Positions 34,734-41,663 of a stretch of 64,000 nt of DNA are shown here, piece by piece. The translations under genes and the position numbers were made by a program. The stretch is taken from positions 64,001 to 128,000 of the forward strand of contig CBDDFZ010000002.1 of NCBI GenBank assembly GCA_965227515.1. The letters run 5' to 3'. Origin of the DNA: Alphaproteobacteria bacterium (lineage in GTDB: Bacteria; Pseudomonadota; Alphaproteobacteria; CALKHQ01). Under the pieces are notes generated by a model. The model worked only from the letters and a program-made list of their open reading frames with translations, did no database searches and was not told the origin of the DNA. Every line of letters starts with the position of its first letter. Within the stretch, counting starts at the first letter, position 1.

Positions 34734-36443
34734 TCAACCTCCGGGTACGTGAGAAACGGAGGTCGGGCTCCCGTCCGGCCCGCCTTCCACGATGACCTCG
34801 CGGAACATGCCCGCGTTCATGTGGTAGCTGAGGTGGCAATGGAACGCCCACCGCCCTGGCGCGTCCACCTCCGTCTCCATCGACAGGGTGGACCCGGGGG
34901 CCACGCTCACCACGTGCTTGGCCGGGTTGGACGCGCCATTGCCCGTGTCCAGGATCGACCACATGCCGTGCAAGTGCATCGGATGCGCCATCATCGTCTC
35001 GTTTACGAAGGTGAATCGGACACGCTCTCCGTACTGCAGGCGGATCGGCTCGGCATCGCTGTACTTGATGCCGTCGAACGACCAGATGTAACGCTCCATG
35101 TTGCCGGTCAGCCGGATGGTGATTTCGCGGGTGGGCGGGCGCTGATCATAGAGCGGCGCCTGCGCGACGAGATCGCGATAGGAGAGCATGCGGCCGCCGC
35201 CGGCTGCCACCGGCGCGAGACCGCTGCCGGCGGCGTAGAACGGGTCTGCCGAGGGCTCCGACGGCATGTCGTGGCCCATTGCGGCATGATCCATGCCATC
35301 CATGGGCCCCTGCATCACCGTCCCGTCCGACATGACGTGGTCACCGCCACCCATTTCCATATCGCCGTGATCCATCCCCTCATGCGCCATGCCCATGTCG
35401 GCCATAGTCAACAGTGGGGGCTCGCGCAGGTCTGGCACCTCGCCTGCCAGGCCCTCGCGCGGTGCAAGCGTGCCTCTGGCAAACGCCGTACGTCCCACTG
35501 ACTCGGCAAATAGGGTGTAGGGGCGATCCTCCTCGGGCCGGACGACCACGTCATAGGTTTCGGCGACCGAGATCCGCAGTTCGTCCACCACCACTGGGCG
35601 AACATTGTTGCCGTCTGCCTGCACCACGGTCATCTGCAGGCCCGGGATGCGGATATCGAAGTATGCCATTGCGGAGGCGTTGATGAACCGGAGCCGAATC
35701 CGCTCACCTGGCGTGAACAGGCCCGTCCAGTTCTGCACCGGGTCCATGCCGTTGATCAGCGGCACGTACCCGTGGACGTCCTCGATGTCCGTTGGCGCCA
35801 TTCGCATTTCACCCCATTCCAACCGATCGGCCAGCGCCGCGTCGAATCCGAGCTCGGTCATTTCGCCGAGAAAGTCGACCAGCGTGCGTTGCTGCCGGTT
35901 GTAGTAGTCCGACATCAGCTTCAAATTCCGCATGACTCGTTCGCCGGAATGCGGATGGGCGTCGGTCAGCAGCACCACATAGTCACGATCAAAGCGGAAC
36001 GGTTCAGACCCGGCGGGCTCGATGACGATGGCGCCATAAGCGCCGTCCGGTTCCTGAAGGCCGCTGTGACTGTGGTACCAGTACGTGCCGGCCTGAACGA
36101 TGGGGAAGCGATAGGTGAAGGTTTCGCCGGGTGCGATGCCGGGAAAGCTGATACCCGGCACACCGTCCTGGTTTGGCGGCAGTATCAATCCGTGCCAGTG
36201 GATCGAGGTGTCTTCGCTGAGGGTGTTGGTGACATTGATCGTCACTTCCTCACCCTCGGTGAATCGTAGCACCGGGCCGGGGCTGGCGCCGTTGAAGCCA
36301 ATGCCGGTGCGCTGGAAGGCTTCGGTGGTGATGGGAACATAGCCCACGGTGAGGTCGATTTCGGCGCCGCTTGCCGGCAGCATCGCGGCTAGCAAGGCGC
36401 CGAGGCCGAGCAGGCACGCGGGCACAACGGGATGGCGTTGCAT
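34734..36443 (-). CDS. copA: CopA/PcoA-type multicopper oxidase
   Basis: IHWHG, YWYHSHSG, HPMHLHG, WAFHCHLSYHM, and a Met/His-rich insert. Confidence 0.95.
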   Translation of the reverse strand: MQRHPVVPACLLGLGALLAAMLPASGAEIDLTVGYVPITTEAFQRTGIGFNGASPGPVLRFTEGEEVTINVTNTLSEDTSIHWHGLILPPNQDGVPGISFPGIAPGETFTYRFPIVQAGTYWYHSHSGLQEPDGAYGAIVIEPAGSEPFRFDRDYVVLLTDAHPHSGERVMRNLKLMSDYYNRQQRTLVDFLGEMTELGFDAALADRLEWGEMRMAPTDIEDVHGYVPLINGMDPVQNWTGLFTPGERIRLRFINASAMAYFDIRIPGLQMTVVQADGNNVRPVVVDELRISVAETYDVVVRPEEDRPYTLFAESVGRTAFARGTLAPREGLAGEVPDLREPPLLTMADMGMAHEGMDHGDMEMGGGDHVMSDGTVMQGPMDGMDHAAMGHDMPSEPSADPFYAAGSGLAPVAAGGGRMLSYRDLVAQAPLYDQRPPTREITIRLTGNMERYIWSFDGIKYSDAEPIRLQYGERVRFTFVNETMMAHPMHLHGMWSILDTGNGASNPAKHVVSVAPGSTLSMETEVDAPGRWAFHCHLSYHMNAGMFREVIVEGGPDGSPTSVSHVPGG

Positions 36444-36506
36444 CCAGGAATCTCCAGTTATAGTGAGAAGATGCGGCCAGCACGCGGCTGGCCGCAACTC
36501 GACTTG

Positions 36507-37031
36507 TTAGTGCTGAATGTTGACCTGACCGACCATGCCGACCTGATAATGGCCGGGAATGTTGCAGGCGAACTCTAGATCGCCTGAGCCCGAGAAGGTC
36601 CAGGTCAGCTCAGTGGACTGACCGGGCTCCAGCAGGACGCTGTTGGGGTCGTCATGGTCCATCGAGCCGCCATCCATGCCCATCATGTCATGATTGATGC
36701 GATCGACCGCGATCATCCCGTGCTGGACCATGACCATCATCTCAGCCTGATGTTCCACGTGCATGGCGGGCGTGCCAATGTTGAATTCATGCAGTGCTAC
36801 ACCCTGATTAGCGATGACGAATCGGATGGTTTCGCCCTGGCTGACGGAAATCGACTCCGGTTCGAAGTAGTTGTCCTGCAAAACGATTTCGACGGTCCGA
36901 CTGGCAGAAGCGGGGTCGCCCGGCTGGCCGATCTGAGTATTGTTGACGGCATCGGCCTGAGCCACGCTGGCAAGGGTGCCCGCGGCGGCAATCGAGCACG
37001 CGCAAGCAAGGATAGACTTGGCAATAGTCAT
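36507..37031 (-). CDS. Periplasmic cupredoxin (CopI-like)
   Basis: Signal peptide, HEFNIG, Met/His-rich loop, FACNIPGHYQVGM. Confidence 0.9.
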   Translation of the reverse strand: MTIAKSILACACSIAAAGTLASVAQADAVNNTQIGQPGDPASASRTVEIVLQDNYFEPESISVSQGETIRFVIANQGVALHEFNIGTPAMHVEHQAEMMVMVQHGMIAVDRINHDMMGMDGGSMDHDDPNSVLLEPGQSTELTWTFSGSGDLEFACNIPGHYQVGMVGQVNIQH

Positions 37032-37116
37032 GGGTATTCCTCGTAAGTCTGATGATGTAGCAGAGCACGCCCGTCCGACGGCGAACCGCAGGATGGGGCA
37101 AGTGGGCTGTTACGCC

Positions 37117-37443
37117 TCAGACTCGAGGAGGTGGCGGACTGACTTCGCTGAACAACTGGTGGCACGCGTTGTCGTCATGACCGGGCGACAACCCGGCCAA
37201 CGAAACGCAGCTTGCGGCAAACGATGCACGCAATGGCATCACGAGCCCGCCTGAACAACGCTCAATCGATATATCGCACGTGGGGCCGGAATCGCCGGTG
37301 TCGCCACGATGATGAAGATCCGCTGCCGACATGGCTGCCGCGACCACGCTGCCGTTACCCGCCATGGCGGGAGTCCCATACGTCGCGATAGCGACGGCGG
37401 TCCAGAACATCAGGGTCAGGGCAAGTCCGAGCAGGCGGTTCAT
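37117..37443 (-). CDS. CutF/CruR (DUF2946-like) leader peptide with signal sequence, Cys motif and C-terminal PPPPR
   Basis: Hydrophobic N-terminus, HH...C-x6-C, ends EVSPPPPRV*; first gene of the cupredoxin-copA-copB unit. Confidence 0.72.
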   Translation of the reverse strand: MNRLLGLALTLMFWTAVAIATYGTPAMAGNGSVVAAAMSAADLHHRGDTGDSGPTCDISIERCSGGLVMPLRASFAASCVSLAGLSPGHDDNACHQLFSEVSPPPPRV

Positions 37444-37456
37444 TTCGCCTCTATCC

Positions 37457-37480
37457 GGCCCTCCCGTGCTGGAAGGTCAA
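37457..37480 (-). promoter_or_regulatory. Imperfect CueR-type promoter/operator
   Basis: Minus strand reads TTGACCTTCCagcacgGGAGGG: a -35 TTGACC overlapping the ACCTTCC half-site. The spacer is one base shorter than in the other boxes. Confidence 0.55.
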
Positions 37481-37545
37481 TATCAAAAATGAGCTGGATC
37501 ACCAAAAAATCAGCCAGGCGGTCTGTAGGGGCCCATGAGCCAGCG

Positions 37546-38118
37546 CTAGTGCGCGCCCGAACCGCCGCGCGCGATGGCCAGATGATGCGCCTGGTGGTGG
37601 GCGCCTGTCGCCATCAGCCCGAAGAAGCCCAGCGCCTGGATGCGGGCCACGTCGGCCGCATCGGCGGCGGTAACGCGCCAAACGATCCCGCCGTCCGACA
37701 CCTCGGCCTGCGACATCCAGCCGGTCTCGCCAGCCAACACCGGCGCATGGGCGGGCACCATCCGGCCAGCGGCCGCACCGCCGTAGCCGGCGACATCGAT
37801 GCGCATTTCCAGGCCGTCCGCCAGCTTGGCCTCCTGGACCGTCGCCTGCATCAGCATGTCCATATCGGCCAGGTGCGCGGCCAGGGCACCGATGTCGACC
37901 GACGACCAGTCGGTCTGCGGGTCGGTTTCCAAGATCGCCACGATCTCGGCGATGGCGGCAAAGGCGCTCTGCCCCGTTTCGGCCGGCGCACTCGGCCCGG
38001 CACCCATCATCTGAGCATGGTCGCCATGTAGGTGCTCCTGGGCCTTATGCTCCTGAGCATTTGCCGGCCACGCCAGGACGGCGACGATCGCGGGCAGAAC
38101 AGCGGCTGCAATTCTCAT
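37546..38118 (-). CDS. Exported His/Met-rich hypothetical protein (putative copper-binding)
   Basis: Signal peptide, EHLHGDHAQMM, HLADMDMLM, MVPAHA, C-terminal HHQAHH; GGAGG RBS. Confidence 0.78.
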   Translation of the reverse strand: MRIAAAVLPAIVAVLAWPANAQEHKAQEHLHGDHAQMMGAGPSAPAETGQSAFAAIAEIVAILETDPQTDWSSVDIGALAAHLADMDMLMQATVQEAKLADGLEMRIDVAGYGGAAAGRMVPAHAPVLAGETGWMSQAEVSDGGIVWRVTAADAADVARIQALGFFGLMATGAHHQAHHLAIARGGSGAH

Positions 38119-38184
38119 GAGACCTCCTCCGTGAGCATCATTCGCTTCTACCCGACCGCATCCCCACGCCATATGATCTGGATC

Positions 38185-38796
38185 ATGTCGGATGTCTTTT
38201 CCGCGATTGAGCTTGCGGTTGGCCCGTCGGGCGTCAGCACGGTGTCGTTGGCCCCGCAACAGGCACTGTTCCGCCAGGACGACCCGACAAGGGGCATGTT
38301 CCTGTTGAGGTCGGGGCGCGTCGACCTGATGCGGCACACGGCATCGGGCATCACCGCGCGCATCCATGCGGCACGCGCCGGCGAGACGTTCGCGGAAGCG
38401 TCGCTATACAGCGACCGCTACCATTGCGATGCGGTGGCGGTGTCGGCCAGCGAAGCGATCCAGTTCCACAAGGCGGCCGTGCTGGCCGCCCTCGCTCGCC
38501 AGCCCGAGCTGGCAAGCGCCATGTCGCATCACCTGGCCGCCTCGTTGCGCGAGACGCGGCGGCGCATCGAGCTGCTGTTCGTGACGCCGTTGTCCGAGCG
38601 CCTCCATCAGCGTCTGGCCGATCACGCCAACAGCGACGGCGCGCTCCCGCCCCATACAACGACAAAGACCATCGCGGAGGAAATCGGCGCCACGCCGGAA
38701 GCCACCTATCGCGCACTTGCGCAACTCGAACGCCAGGGTCGGGTCGAGCGGGTCAGGTGCGGGACAATCAGGCTTCGGGCGATCCCGCGATCCTGA
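38185..38796 (+). CDS. Crp/Fnr-family transcriptional regulator
   Basis: cNMP-binding-like domain (LFRQDD...[10 protein letters not shown]...YHCDAVA) and HTH ([16 protein letters not shown]). Confidence 0.88.
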
Positions 38797-41098
38797 CCGA
38801 CCTCAGCCTTAGCGCGTTGCCGATCACCGACACCGACGACAGGCTCATGGCGGCGGCGGCCAGCATCGGGGAGAGCATGACCTCGAGGAACGGGTAGAGG
38901 ATGCCGGCGGCGATCGGCACCCCGGCGGCATTGTAGAAAAACGCGAAGAACAGGTTCTGGCGGATATTGCGCATGGTCGCCTGCGCCAGGTGGCGCGCGC
39001 GCAGGATCGCGTTGAGGTCGCCCTTGACCAGAGTGATGCCGGCGCTCTCCACCGCTACGTCGGCGCCGGCCCCCATGGCGATGCCGACATCGGCCGCGGC
39101 CAAAGCCGGCGCGTCGTTTACCCCGTCACCGGCCATGGCGACACCATGTCCATCCGCCTGGAACCGGCTCACCAGGTCCGCCTTGGTCTGCGGGCTTGCC
39201 TCCGCGTGCACTTCGTCGATGCCGAGCGTGCCGGCCACCGCCTCGGCGGTGCGCCGGTTGTCGCCGGTGGCCATCACGATCCGGAGCCCCGCTTCGTGCA
39301 GGGCGGCGATTGCGGCGGGCGTGGTTTCCTTGACTGGGTCGGCCACAGCGAGGATGCCGGCGGCCTTGCCGTCGACACCGACGAACATCGCGGTCTTGCC
39401 CTCGCCGGCCAGTTCCGCCGCGCGCTCCGAGAGCGACCCAAGTTCGACCCCGAGATCATCCATCAGCGCGGCATTGCCAAGCGCCACCTCGCGCCCGTCC
39501 ACCGTACCGCGTACGCCCTTGGCAGTGATCGCCTGGAAGTCATTGGCCGACGATAGGGTCAATTGCCTTTCCTTCGCCCCTGCCAGGATCGCCGCCGCCA
39601 GCGGATGCTCCGAGCCCTGCTCCAATGCGGCGGCCAGTGCCAGCATCTCCCCTTCGTCATCCGAGGCGATAACATCGGTCAGCTTGGGCTTGCCCTCGGT
39701 CAGGGTGCCGGTCTTGTCGACCACCAGCACGTCCACCTTGGCGAACCGCTCCAGCGCCTCGGCATCGCGGATCAGCACGCCGAGCCCGGCACCGCGCCCG
39801 GTCGCCACCATGATCGACATCGGTGTGGCCAGCCCCAGCGCGCACGGGCAGGCGATGATCAGCACGCTAACCGCGGCGATGAGCGCGAACGCGAATGCCG
39901 GCGACGGTCCGAAAATCAGCCACACGACAAAGGCGATGACGGCGATGGCGAGCACCAGCGGCACGAACCAGCCCGCGACCCGGTCGGCCAGCGCCTGGAT
40001 CGGCGCGCGGCTGCGCTGGGCTTTCGCCACGAGGTCGACGATCCGAGCCAGCATGGTATCGGCGCCGACTCGTTCGGCTTGCATGACGAAGCTGCCGGTG
40101 GTGTTGAGCGTGCCGCCGGTGACCGCATCGCCGTCCGCCTTCTCCACCGGCATCGGCTCGCCGGTCAGCATACTCTCGTCGACCGCCGAGCGGCCCTCGA
40201 TCAACACGCCGTCCACCGGCACGCTCTCGCCCGGACGCACGCGCAGACGATCGCCGGCCTGGACTTGGTCCAGCGGCACGTCGATTTCGTCATCGCCCTC
40301 AATGCGGCGGGCGGTCTTTGGAGCAAGGTCCAGCAGGGCCCGGATTGCATCGCCGGTGCGCTCACGCGCGGCGAGCTCTAACACCTGGCCGACCAGCACC
40401 AGGATGATGATGACCGCGGCGGCCTCGAAATAGATCGGCGGGCCGCCATGCCCATCACCCATGTGACCGGGAAAGAGGCCCGGCGCCACCATCGCTACCA
40501 CGCTGAACACATAGGCGGCACCGGTGCCGATGGCGATCAGGGTCCACATGTTGGTGTTGCGGGTGACGATGGAGCGCCATCCGCGGCGGAAGAAGGGTGC
40601 GGCAGCCCACAACACGACGGGCGTTGCCAGCGCGAACTGCAGCCAGCGGGCCACCTCGACGCCAAGCCAGTCGGCGAACGGGATGCCGATGTGGCTGCCC
40701 ATCTCCAGCGCGAACACGCCGATCGCCAGCGGCGCCCCGACCCACAGCCGGCGCCGGAAATCCACCAGCTCGGGATTAGGACCGGCGTCGGCGCTCGGCG
40801 TCATCGGCTCCAGCGCCATGCCGCAGATCGGGCAGTCGCCGGGCGCGTCGCGCACGATCTCCGGGTGCATCGGGCAGGTGTAGCGCGTGCCCGGCGCAGC
40901 GGGAGCCGGCGTCCCCGACGAGCGCTCGCCAGCCTCGAACCGCTCCAGGCACTTGCGCGAGCAGAAGTAGTAAGTCTCTCCTTCGTGCTCTGAGACATGC
41001 TCCGCAGTTGAGGGGTCGACGGTCATGCCGCAGATCGGGTCACGAACCGCGGTTCCCTCAGGATGACTATGGTCGTGGTGATGCGCTTGCACGGACAT
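38768..41098 (-). CDS. P1B-type Cu(I)/Ag(I)-exporting ATPase with YHS and heavy-metal-binding domains
   Basis: DPICGM/YYFCS (YHS), [54 protein letters not shown]. Confidence 0.97.
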
Positions 41099-41147
41099 GG
41101 GCTTGCCCCCAGCCGCGGAGCCGGACAATCCCGCCGCGGTGTGTCCA

Positions 41148-41178
41148 TATATGGAGTTTCCAGTCACTGGAAGCTCAA
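41148..41178 (-). promoter_or_regulatory. CueR-dependent promoter of the Cu-ATPase
   Basis: TTGAGC-19 bp-CATATA, with the perfect dyad TTCCAGT-n-ACTGGAA (41158-41172) in the spacer. Confidence 0.8.
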
Positions 41179-41205
41179 GCCAATTCTGAATCGACAATCA
41201 CTGTA

Positions 41206-41261: not shown

Positions 41262-41663
41262 ATGAACATCAGCGATGCGGCCGGCCTGAGCGGATTGCCC
41301 AACAAGACCATCCGCTATTATGAGGACATCGGGCTGGTGCAGCCACAGCGCAGCGGTAATGGATACCGCGCATTCACCGAGAGCGACGTGCATAAACTTC
41401 GCTTCTTGTGTCGCGCACGCTCGCTTGGATTTTCGATCGAGGATTGCCGCGCGCTTCTGGACCTATATGAAGAGCGGCATCGATCAAGCGCCGACGTAAA
41501 ACGGATCGCCAAGGCCAATCTGGCGCAAATCGACATGAAGATCGGCGAGTTGCAGGCGATGCGTCATACGCTGGTCCATCTGATTGACAGTTGTCATGGC
41601 GACGACAGGCCCGATTGCCCAATACTCGATGATCTGGCCGGTGCCGCATGGGCATCGCCCTGA
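41262..41663 (+). CDS. cueR: Cu(I)-responsive MerR-family regulator
   Basis: KTIRYYEDIGL, NGYR, RARSLGFS, and the C-terminal SCHGDDRPDCPIL metal loop. Confidence 0.96.
   Translation: MNISDAAGLSGLPNKTIRYYEDIGLVQPQRSGNGYRAFTESDVHKLRFLCRARSLGFSIEDCRALLDLYEERHRSSADVKRIAKANLAQIDMKIGELQAMRHTLVHLIDSCHGDDRPDCPILDDLAGAAWASP

Follow-up and report, generated by a model that had tools for sequence, protein, structure and literature searches.

Introduction

CutF-type control is the translational sensing of extracytoplasmic metal by a nascent exported chain, worked out in detail in one organism and bioinformatically predicted in many. In the SecM, MifM and VemP systems, export-modulated arrest of a nascent chain opens a hairpin that sequesters a downstream gene's Shine-Dalgarno (SD) sequence. 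The DNA studied here, referred to as the window, is the whole 64-kb stretch 64,001-128,000 of contig CBDDFZ010000002.1 of an Alphaproteobacteria bacterium (GCA_965227515.1; genome coded G000), and the element in question is an open reading frame (ORF) of 108 amino acids (aa), named ORF108 (window positions 37443-37117, minus strand), which precedes the cupredoxin gene copI at the head of a copper-resistance operon. We consider it probable that ORF108 is a CutF-type regulatory leader peptide that controls copI, a copA-type multicopper oxidase gene and copB by the CutF mechanism. It is a predicted and so far unannotated member of the known CutF-like stalling leaders, in a new place, before copI. 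Its apparent local novelties are copI as the first gene, a C-x6-C motif, an anti-SD placed in the terminal codons, a predicted leaderless start at a CueR-type promoter and a position outside Pfam family DUF2946.

As described in PMC8456105, CutF of Rhodobacter capsulatus has 118 aa, the motif C69xxH72C73 and the terminal sequence P109EPEGPPPRL118. Its mechanism is reported to need translation of a leader that acts in cis, together with a signal peptide, the Cys motif, a stall at PPP and a stem-loop that shields the SD (Ozturk et al., mBio 2023, PMC9973294; bioRxiv 10.1101/2025.02.05.636593); PPP is shown to be the stalling element, and the model in the preprint has the Cu motif in the periplasm while PPP is in the tunnel (bioRxiv 10.1101/2025.02.05.636593). 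PMC9973294 sets out rules by which a CutF-like protein is under 150 aa long, bears PP among its final 15 residues, carries a signal peptide and has a same-strand downstream gene at most 1000 nucleotides (nt) away.

The Leader and the Stem That Hides the copI SD

On the minus strand the order is a MerR/CueR-type promoter, ORF108, an 85-nt intergenic region, copI, the multicopper oxidase gene and copB (Table 1). The N-terminus of ORF108 reads MNRLLGLALTLMFWTAVAIATYGTPAMA, followed by G; it has a basic start (MNR), a 17-residue hydrophobic core and then AMA, and residues 1-28 look, by eye, like a signal peptide. The full layout is MNRLLGLALTLMFWTAVAIATYGTPAMA/GNGS...HH...C56DISIERC63...C79...H89...C94H95...SPPPPRV-stop, with histidines at positions 44, 45, 89 and 95 and cysteines at 56, 63, 79 and 94, and the end, P103-P106, R107, V108 and stop, is encoded by CCG CCA CCT CCT CGA GTC TGA (37137-37117). 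Forty-two residues lead from Cys63 to Pro105, and R, V and the stop follow the PP. An earlier sequence-only reading of this DNA had described just such an ORF, with a signal peptide, a His/Cys cluster and the SPPPPRV ending, and that description is correct, the signal peptide again being a judgement by eye. Set beside the four published CutF-like rules, ORF108 has 108 aa, prolines at P103-P106, a putative signal peptide, recognized by eye, and copI 85 nt downstream on the same strand; a putative Cys/His metal-binding motif (C56-x6-C63, with H44/H45) lies in its mature part.

The last codons of this leader are also one arm of an RNA stem. The sequence UCCUCGAGUCUGA, which spans the last base of Pro105, Pro106, Arg107, Val108 and the UGA stop, is complementary to UCAGACU-UA-CGAGGA before copI, with 7 + 6 pairs around a 2-nt bulge, as the sequence-only reading had stated, and the second arm contains the copI SD, GAGGA (37042-37038), 6 nt before the copI ATG (37031). 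RNAfold of 37020-37160 (minus strand), the check which that reading had called for, returns the outer stem exactly in this form together with an inner imperfect hairpin, which had likewise been foreseen for the intergenic region. The minimum free energy (MFE) is -51.8 kcal/mol as against -37.9 +/- 3.75 for shuffled sequences (z = -3.70), and 1 of 200 dinucleotide shuffles does as well. Folding of the whole predicted leader transcript (456 nt) preserves the stem in the MFE as well as in the centroid structure, within an overall fold that is ordinary (z = -1.06). In the MFE pairing of the SD, five of its six core bases are matched to positions -7 to -11, counted from where the leader stop ends.

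Two other roles for the structure were tried and rejected: an intrinsic terminator or attenuator, as no U-tract follows the 3' arm, and termination-reinitiation coupling, as the intergenic region is 85 nt long. A simple promoter and terminator scan of 36400-38400 returned nothing, though it does not cover MerR promoters with 19-bp spacers.

A Family of Syntenic Leaders

Searched in 400 genomes of the same class, copI has matches in 56 of 401 genomes when the window's own is counted. The loci examined were 29 others among the copI matches listed (L083-L111) and one alphaproteobacterial metagenome-assembled genome, L051, from a species-level copI search. In 28 of these 30 other loci a same-strand ORF of about 105-145 aa stands upstream of copI and ends in [P/R]PP[R/K]-x(0-5)-stop (TPPPRV, PPPPRLS, LRPPRV and RPPKLVS are examples of such C-termini), with a hydrophobic N-terminus, a His-rich stretch and a Cys motif in the middle; of the two loci without a leader, L090 lacks upstream DNA, and in L098 no ORF of this kind is present. 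At the level of sequence, this synteny settles that ORF108 is a real, conserved leader. A hidden Markov model (HMM) built from 23 syntenic leaders without ORF108 singles out ORF108 as its sole match when run against all stop-to-stop ORFs of 50 aa or more from the genome, 57,507 in number (E 2.9e-8, 36.3 bits; runner-up E 0.3), with the caveat that the column layout was taken from an alignment that had included ORF108. The profile with ORF108 included matches 36 of the 401 class genomes, and 30 of those, from a comparison of the two genome lists, also have a copI match. Among the additional profile loci, L138 and L140 have leader and copI, and L141 has another small periplasmic His-rich ORF.

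What the family keeps is strikingly little. In an alignment of 24 leaders only Met1, one Cys (C63 in ORF108) and PP (P105, P106) are invariant, and mean column identity is 21%. The invariant Cys nevertheless stands 38-42 residues before the invariant PP in 24 of 24 (mean 39.8, standard deviation 1.1), where the chance of finding any Cys in a 5-residue window is 0.14 per sequence; the aligner may favour a fitting Cys, yet every sequence has one there. After the PP come 2 to 5 residues. The leader is not a universal companion of copI, since the best 80 copI loci of the species-level collection, almost all from Pseudomonas or Marinobacter, have no comparable leader, with the exception of L051.

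Two side observations concern start sites and unrelated upstream ORFs. At L083:8-45 and L089:840-877 a CueR box is followed, at offset 34, by an ATG in a frame other than that of the PP-ending ORF; this may reflect a frameshift or a non-canonical start, or else a second small ORF. In the Pseudomonas nitroreducens group (L037, L042, L058, L065, L069, L070 and L075-L077, at about 2160-2330) a different small ORF lies upstream of copI, 43-57 aa long and of the form MHLIISTLFAVLFFP...GGDITFQRMQEQ..., without the C-terminal PP motif.

Conservation of the SD Pairing

The region from stop-45 to start+12 was folded in 29 loci, and in 14 of them the leader's final 20 nt hold at least four of the six copI SD-core bases in pairs (13 of 26 once the near-duplicates L089, L105 and L106 are removed). 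The controls were 612 same-strand ORF pairs from the genome, each with an SD and a spacer of 44-240 nt; 25 of them (4.1%) show such pairing, so that the leaders stand about 12-fold above the genome background (Fisher p 8e-11, a value overstated because the relatives are not independent). Because the registers are shifted from locus to locus, column-wise covariation could not be counted, and cis/trans duplex permutation and positional tests were therefore used. Duplexes that join the final 24+3 nt of the leader to the 26 nt ahead of the copI start average -12.8 kcal/mol in cis as against -9.9 +/- 0.5 with permuted partners; the cis mean was reached by 0 of 20,000 permutations, although a GC level common to a genome could contribute a little. 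Given that cis duplexes beat permuted partners, the arms co-vary locus by locus. When the 5' window was slid over the leader's last 150 nt and the spacer, the best partner window lay no more than 9 nt from the leader terminus in 12 of 26 loci, where about 2.4 would be expected.

The codons that supply the anti-SD vary. The claim of the sequence-only reading that the PPPPR codons form it holds at this locus and, family-wide, in 6 of the 14 pairing loci, where Pro-Pro-Arg codons (CCUCCUCG and similar) serve (this one, L091, L096, L100, L108 and L109); in the other eight (L051, L087, L088, L094, L101, L102, L103 and L106) the last sense codons and the stop do so (UCCUGA, CUCUGA, ACCUGA), and in many relatives the pairing falls at -1 to -7 from the stop. 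What is constant in the family is the place of the anti-SD: it lies no more than about 20 nt from the stop and either overlaps the PP codons or follows them downstream, a position at which a ribosome paused on PP would cover it. As a separate observation, counted from the sequences, UGA is the stop codon in 25 of 29 leaders, mostly in the form YCUGA. This stop and the preceding base are frequently paired with a UCAG immediately 5' of the SD, and several leaders end in Ser-UGA (UCCUGA), an ending that looks selected at the RNA level.

A CueR-Type Promoter and a Predicted Leaderless Start

Upstream of the leader lies the promoter TTGACC-TTCCAGCACGGGAGGGCCG-GATAGA-GGCGAA-ATG (37480-37441, minus strand), with a -35 element TTGACC (37480-37475), a -10 element GATAGA (37455-37450) and a 19-nt spacer that holds the imperfect dyad CCTTCCAGCACGGGAGGG. 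The site occurs once in the window. It has the 19-bp spacer and the dyad (CCTTCC...GGGAGG) of MerR/CueR promoters, and a cueR-like gene is nearby; its binding and activation by CueR are predicted. Its left half-site is the same as that of the box in the cueR/ATPase intergenic region, a CueR-type sequence, TTGAGC-TTCCAGTGACTGGAAACTC, seen at 41150-41200 (minus strand) between cueR and the Cu ATPase gene. The CueR-type promoter assumed in the sequence-only reading is thus present, and its position is conserved: a TTGACCTT[CT]C...GGAAG box, from which the leader ATG is offset by 37-38 nt, recurs in eight other loci (L091, L095, L096, L102, L103, L104, L106 and L108), none of which has an SD motif before the leader ATG. 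Here the ATG begins 37 nt from the first base of the -35 element, and the -10 ends 6 nt before it. Since a start site would be placed about 7 nt after the -10, the mRNA should begin at or next to the AUG, and from this spacing we infer a transcript that is leaderless or nearly so. The word 'leaderless' has no occurrence in PMC8456105, and a literature search on leaderless mRNA, CueR and copper gave no paper that, by its title, deals with cutF.

Proposed Mechanism

In the mechanism proposed for ORF108, CueR would activate the MerR-type promoter, and the transcript, judged by the spacing, would start at or beside the AUG. A ribosome would then translate the leader, and the signal peptide would send the nascent chain through SecYEG. 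With the ribosome at PPPP, Cys56-x6-Cys63, some 42 residues behind, would be just out on the periplasmic side, a placement that is geometry as regards the distance and presumption as regards the topology. Without periplasmic copper the ribosome would read through and terminate quickly, the 13-bp stem would re-form and copI initiation would stay low. Copper bound to the nascent chain at C56/C63 would prolong the polyproline stall, as shown for CutF; the paused ribosome would cover or unwind 37129-37117, and the freed GAGGA could recruit a second ribosome to copI, the start of which, 85 nt downstream, would be clear of the stalled one. The constant ruler of about 40 residues in an otherwise unconserved sequence would fit a chain that spans the ribosomal tunnel and the translocon.

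For export, copper binding and stalling at this locus the argument runs by analogy with CutF, and for the transcription start it runs from the promoter spacing. In every part that sequence can test (the 28 of 30 loci, the HMM, the spacing, the SD pairing and the CueR-type promoter), the CutF-like leader already suggested by the sequence-only reading has been borne out. A more ambitious form of the proposal, which we hold tentatively and with more doubt than confidence, treats the locus as a two-compartment AND gate written in dual-coded sequence. CueR would sense cytoplasmic Cu(I) and yield a leaderless mRNA on which 70S ribosomes start a nascent-chain sensor of periplasmic copper; the last codons (Pro-Pro-Arg, or Ser/Leu and UGA in relatives) would be selected both as RNA anti-SD and as peptide stall motif; the ruler of about 40 residues would set the Cys motif at the periplasmic exit of SecYEG; and the leaders would form a distinct, mostly unannotated alphaproteobacterial subfamily tied to copI and lying outside Pfam DUF2946.

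Weighing the Alternatives

The main rival to the CutF mechanism, and in our view an unlikely one, is plain translational coupling, in which the 108-aa product would be a secreted copper-binding protein or chaperone, its C-terminal prolines would serve the function of the protein, as first proposed for CutF in 2021, and terminating ribosomes would melt the stem with no copper-modulated stall, which would merely tie translation of copI, in timing and in frequency, to that of the ORF before it. It draws real strength from the position of the stop codon in the 5' arm and of the pairing close to the stop in many relatives, as a ribosome at the stop must open the stem; CutF itself was first read as a possible chaperone with a proline-rich interaction region (PMC8456105). 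Against it, the mature part evolves fast and fixes one Cys, the PP and the spacing between them, a pattern of conservation that suits a nascent-chain ruler better than a folded protein, and CutF is reported to act only in cis, as an undetectable protein with a PPP-dependent stall (PMC9973294; bioRxiv 10.1101/2025.02.05.636593). Quite improbable is a role of the hairpin in mRNA stability or processing, either as a shield for the 5' end of a processed copI-copA-copB transcript or as an RNase site, with SD occlusion incidental. The hairpin is indeed long and stable, and the cutF-cutO intergenic stem-loop is reported to affect the stability of cutFOG mRNA (PMC8456105; PMC9973294), but such a role leaves unexplained the choice of the SD as pairing partner in 14 of 29 loci, as against 4% of controls, and the location of the 5' arm in the last 20 nt of the ORF, and the scan of 36400-38400 found no terminator-like site. 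The inverse logic described for CruR, a small exported upstream ORF with Cys and PP (PMC9973294, citing PMC9426467), would have a default stall relieved by copper, so that copper lowers downstream translation. A shut-off by copper would defeat the purpose of a detoxification operon that stands behind a CueR-type, copper-activated promoter. The C-terminal motif and the spacing agree with those of CutF, and we regard this logic as highly improbable here.

Scarcely credible, finally, is that ORF108 is a chance ORF in a long structured 5' untranslated region, its 108 codons never translated. In favour of chance one may cite the absence of the exact product from a collection of 15 billion proteins, the lack of any direct homologue and the weak coding pattern in GC by codon position (0.615/0.578/0.679); a syntenic ORF family of the same architecture, the HMM match with no other in the genome, the conserved promoter-to-ATG offset and the invariant Cys and PP at fixed spacing all speak against it. 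The direct searches were made on a wide scale: ORF108 has no match in Pfam at E <= 0.01 nor up to E = 10, none in NCBIfam, none in a word-indexed search of 5.8 billion proteins and none by phmmer against 1.84 billion representatives, it is found in 0 of 60 genomes of relatives by direct search, and blastn of 37000-37560 against plasmids found nothing.

Several results, the empty Pfam, NCBIfam, word-indexed and phmmer searches among them, weigh against ORF108 as a CutF-type leader. The likeness to CutF was judged from published residue numbers and the C-terminal decapeptide; the motif is C-x6-C here and CxxHC (CxxxC) in CutF, with one Cys alone invariant in the family; and the leader profile, compared by hhalign with the DUF2946 ORF of this genome, reaches a non-significant probability of 5.5%. 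The anatomy is ambiguous in that the 5' arm includes the stop, so that every terminating ribosome opens the stem and plain coupling would explain the arrangement as well. The duplex is not exceptional in energy for a genome this rich in GC (66.7%), where 213 of 1,419 crude same-strand ORF pairs (15%) equal or beat -19.3 kcal/mol end-to-start, and MFE pairing between SD and leader end is missing in 15 of 29 loci. RNAalifold of 15 intergenic regions gave no consensus structure (0 pairs), because the register of the anti-SD differs between loci, so that the covariation sought by the sequence-only reading emerges from the permutation of partners and not from a consensus fold. At the locus itself, no RNA run is among the sequencing runs listed for 36400-37600.

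The Operon and its Surroundings

The features of the locus are collected in Table 1. The copI product matches Pfam Cupredoxin_1 (4.6e-9) and Copper-bind (7.7e-9), and it matches NCBIfam CopI at 1e-63 with 214 bits, under the 280-bit equivalog cut-off. Farther upstream of the leader lie an ORF of 273 codons, a gene of the Crp family (on the opposite strand), the gene for a P1B ATPase of Cu type and the divergent cueR-like gene. The 273-codon ORF (37546-38367, minus strand), directly upstream of the leader promoter, probably starts later, at MRIAAAVLPAIVAVLAWPANA; its product resembles a His-rich protein of the periplasm, and neither Pfam nor NCBIfam gives a match. The Crp/Fnr-family regulator gene (38032-38796, plus strand) runs, as listed, into two neighbours, the 273-codon ORF at its 5' part and the P-type ATPase ORF (38768-41197) at its 3' end; the true starts would probably shrink these overlaps.

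Table 1. Features of the copI leader locus in window coordinates
Feature	Position	Strand	Basis
CueR/MerR-type promoter	37480-37450	-	read from sequence
Leader ORF, CutF-like, 108 aa (ORF108)	37443-37117	-	ORF list and translation
Cys56 to Cys63 codons (C-x6-C), putative periplasmic Cu-binding motif	37278-37255	-	24-sequence alignment
Four proline codons CCG CCA CCT CCT, putative ribosome-stalling site	37137-37126	-	sequence; PP invariant in alignment
5' arm with anti-SD UCCUCGAGUCUGA	37129-37117	-	sequence and RNAfold
Inner imperfect hairpin within the 85-nt intergenic region	37116-37053	-	MFE and centroid
3' arm UCAGACU-UA-CGAGGA, including the copI SD GAGGA (37042-37038)	37052-37038	-	sequence and folding
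copI, periplasmic cupredoxin, 174 aa, first regulated gene	37031-36507	-	Pfam and NCBIfam
copA/pcoA-type multicopper oxidase (maximal ORF; real start may be downstream of 36497)	36497-34734	-	Cu-oxidase_3, Cu-oxidase_2 and Cu-oxidase domains
copB, outer-membrane copper resistance protein	34730-34026	-	PF05275 CopB, 4.5e-55
MerR/CueR (cueR-like) gene, divergent from the P1B ATPase gene	41262-41663		sequence analysis

Several observations bear on where the locus came from. The GC content of the window is 63.5%, as against 66.6-66.8% for the two contigs and 66.7% for the genome; the nearest copI relatives beyond the class are in Marinobacter and Pseudomonas, at about 55% identity; neither copI nor the leader is in any of the 3 genomes of the same family; and a sequencing run labelled as another organism contains 92% of the sampled words of 36400-37600. 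Taken together, the GC content, the copI relatives, the absence from the family and the foreign run suggest an acquired copper island on a 1.45-Mb replicon.

Implications

Leaders of this kind are missed by gene callers and by Pfam, and copper-resistance operons annotated from copI onward may therefore lack their real first cistron and with it the regulatory logic. ORF108 itself is a case in point: its exact product is missing from the 15-billion-protein collection while copI of the same 1.45-Mb contig is there, and so it was seemingly not called as a gene, at least with this start. The profile of the 24-sequence alignment retrieves only 13 proteins from a large protein collection, all unnamed or 'hypothetical' and without Pfam domains, and DUF2946 (PF11162), of which ORF108 is not a member (no match up to E = 10), is matched weakly by 6 of the 24 aligned leaders, with a best E of 0.015.

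For the study of CutF-type control, the roughly 28 syntenic relatives supply measurable constants, namely a Cys-PP distance of 38-42 residues, PP[R/K] 2-5 residues from the stop in the 24 aligned leaders, an anti-SD inside the final 20 nt and a distance of 37-38 nt from promoter to ATG, and the locus offers predictions for mutagenesis. It is useful for testing the CutF model; it brings no new principle and overturns nothing.

Comparison with Known Systems

The genome holds a second CutF-like ORF, at L112:1492-1902 (minus strand; contig C1, about 2303608-2303982), of 136 aa, with an internal CLTCC motif, the ending RSPPLV-stop and a DUF2946 score of 23.5 bits, about the cut-off. It lies between a SCO1/SenC-like ORF (1925-2539) and a PCuAC-like ORF, neighbours of a class that PMC9973294 names for CutF-like proteins.

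The monitoring substrates SecM, MifM and VemP, mentioned in the CutF preprint too (bioRxiv 10.1101/2025.02.05.636593), watch Sec or YidC, regulate secretion factors and use specific arrest peptides rather than PPP[R/K], with no metal involved. Here the downstream gene encodes a cupredoxin and not a protein-localization factor; ORF108 would, by analogy, work like these Sec/YidC monitoring substrates but is no member of them. In Bordetella pertussis, CruR is encoded by a small upstream ORF, is exported, has Cys and PP motifs and exerts post-transcriptional control of the next gene in response to copper (PMC9973294), but it controls a TonB-dependent transporter, copper relieves its stalling, which is the opposite logic (PMC9973294), and it is a member of DUF2946, as ORF108 is not. 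CopL of Xanthomonas and Stenotrophomonas (copLAB), likened here by description, is again a small ORF right upstream of copA-copB, needed in cis for copper-regulated expression, and the CutF authors count it in the CutF-like group (PMC9973294); its hosts are Gammaproteobacteria, and no copI stands between leader and copA. The terms 'cupredoxin', 'CopI' and 'plastocyanin' have no occurrence in the main text of PMC9973294, the supplements of which may already list the present leaders or neighbours of the copI type.

The likeness to R. capsulatus CutF (cutFOG) is extensive. Both are small leaders (118 and 108 aa), exported in the one case and predicted to be so in the other, with a mid-protein Cys motif and the C-termini GPPPRL-stop and PPPPRV-stop, and the distance from the last motif Cys to the PP before Arg is 42 residues in both, that from C73 to P115 of CutF being computed from the residue numbers given in PMC8456105. 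Both have a short intergenic region and a stem that shields the SD of the following gene, and both precede a copper-detoxification operon with a multicopper oxidase and CueR-type transcriptional control in the background. They part in the arrangement and the RNA: the first gene here is the cupredoxin gene copI, with the oxidase second and copB third, where R. capsulatus has cutO and cutG; the intergenic region is 85 nt as against 40 bp; the ORF itself contains the 5' arm of the stem (Pro-Arg-Val-stop), whereas the cutF-cutO stem-loop is described as intergenic; and the mRNA of the present locus is predicted to be leaderless.

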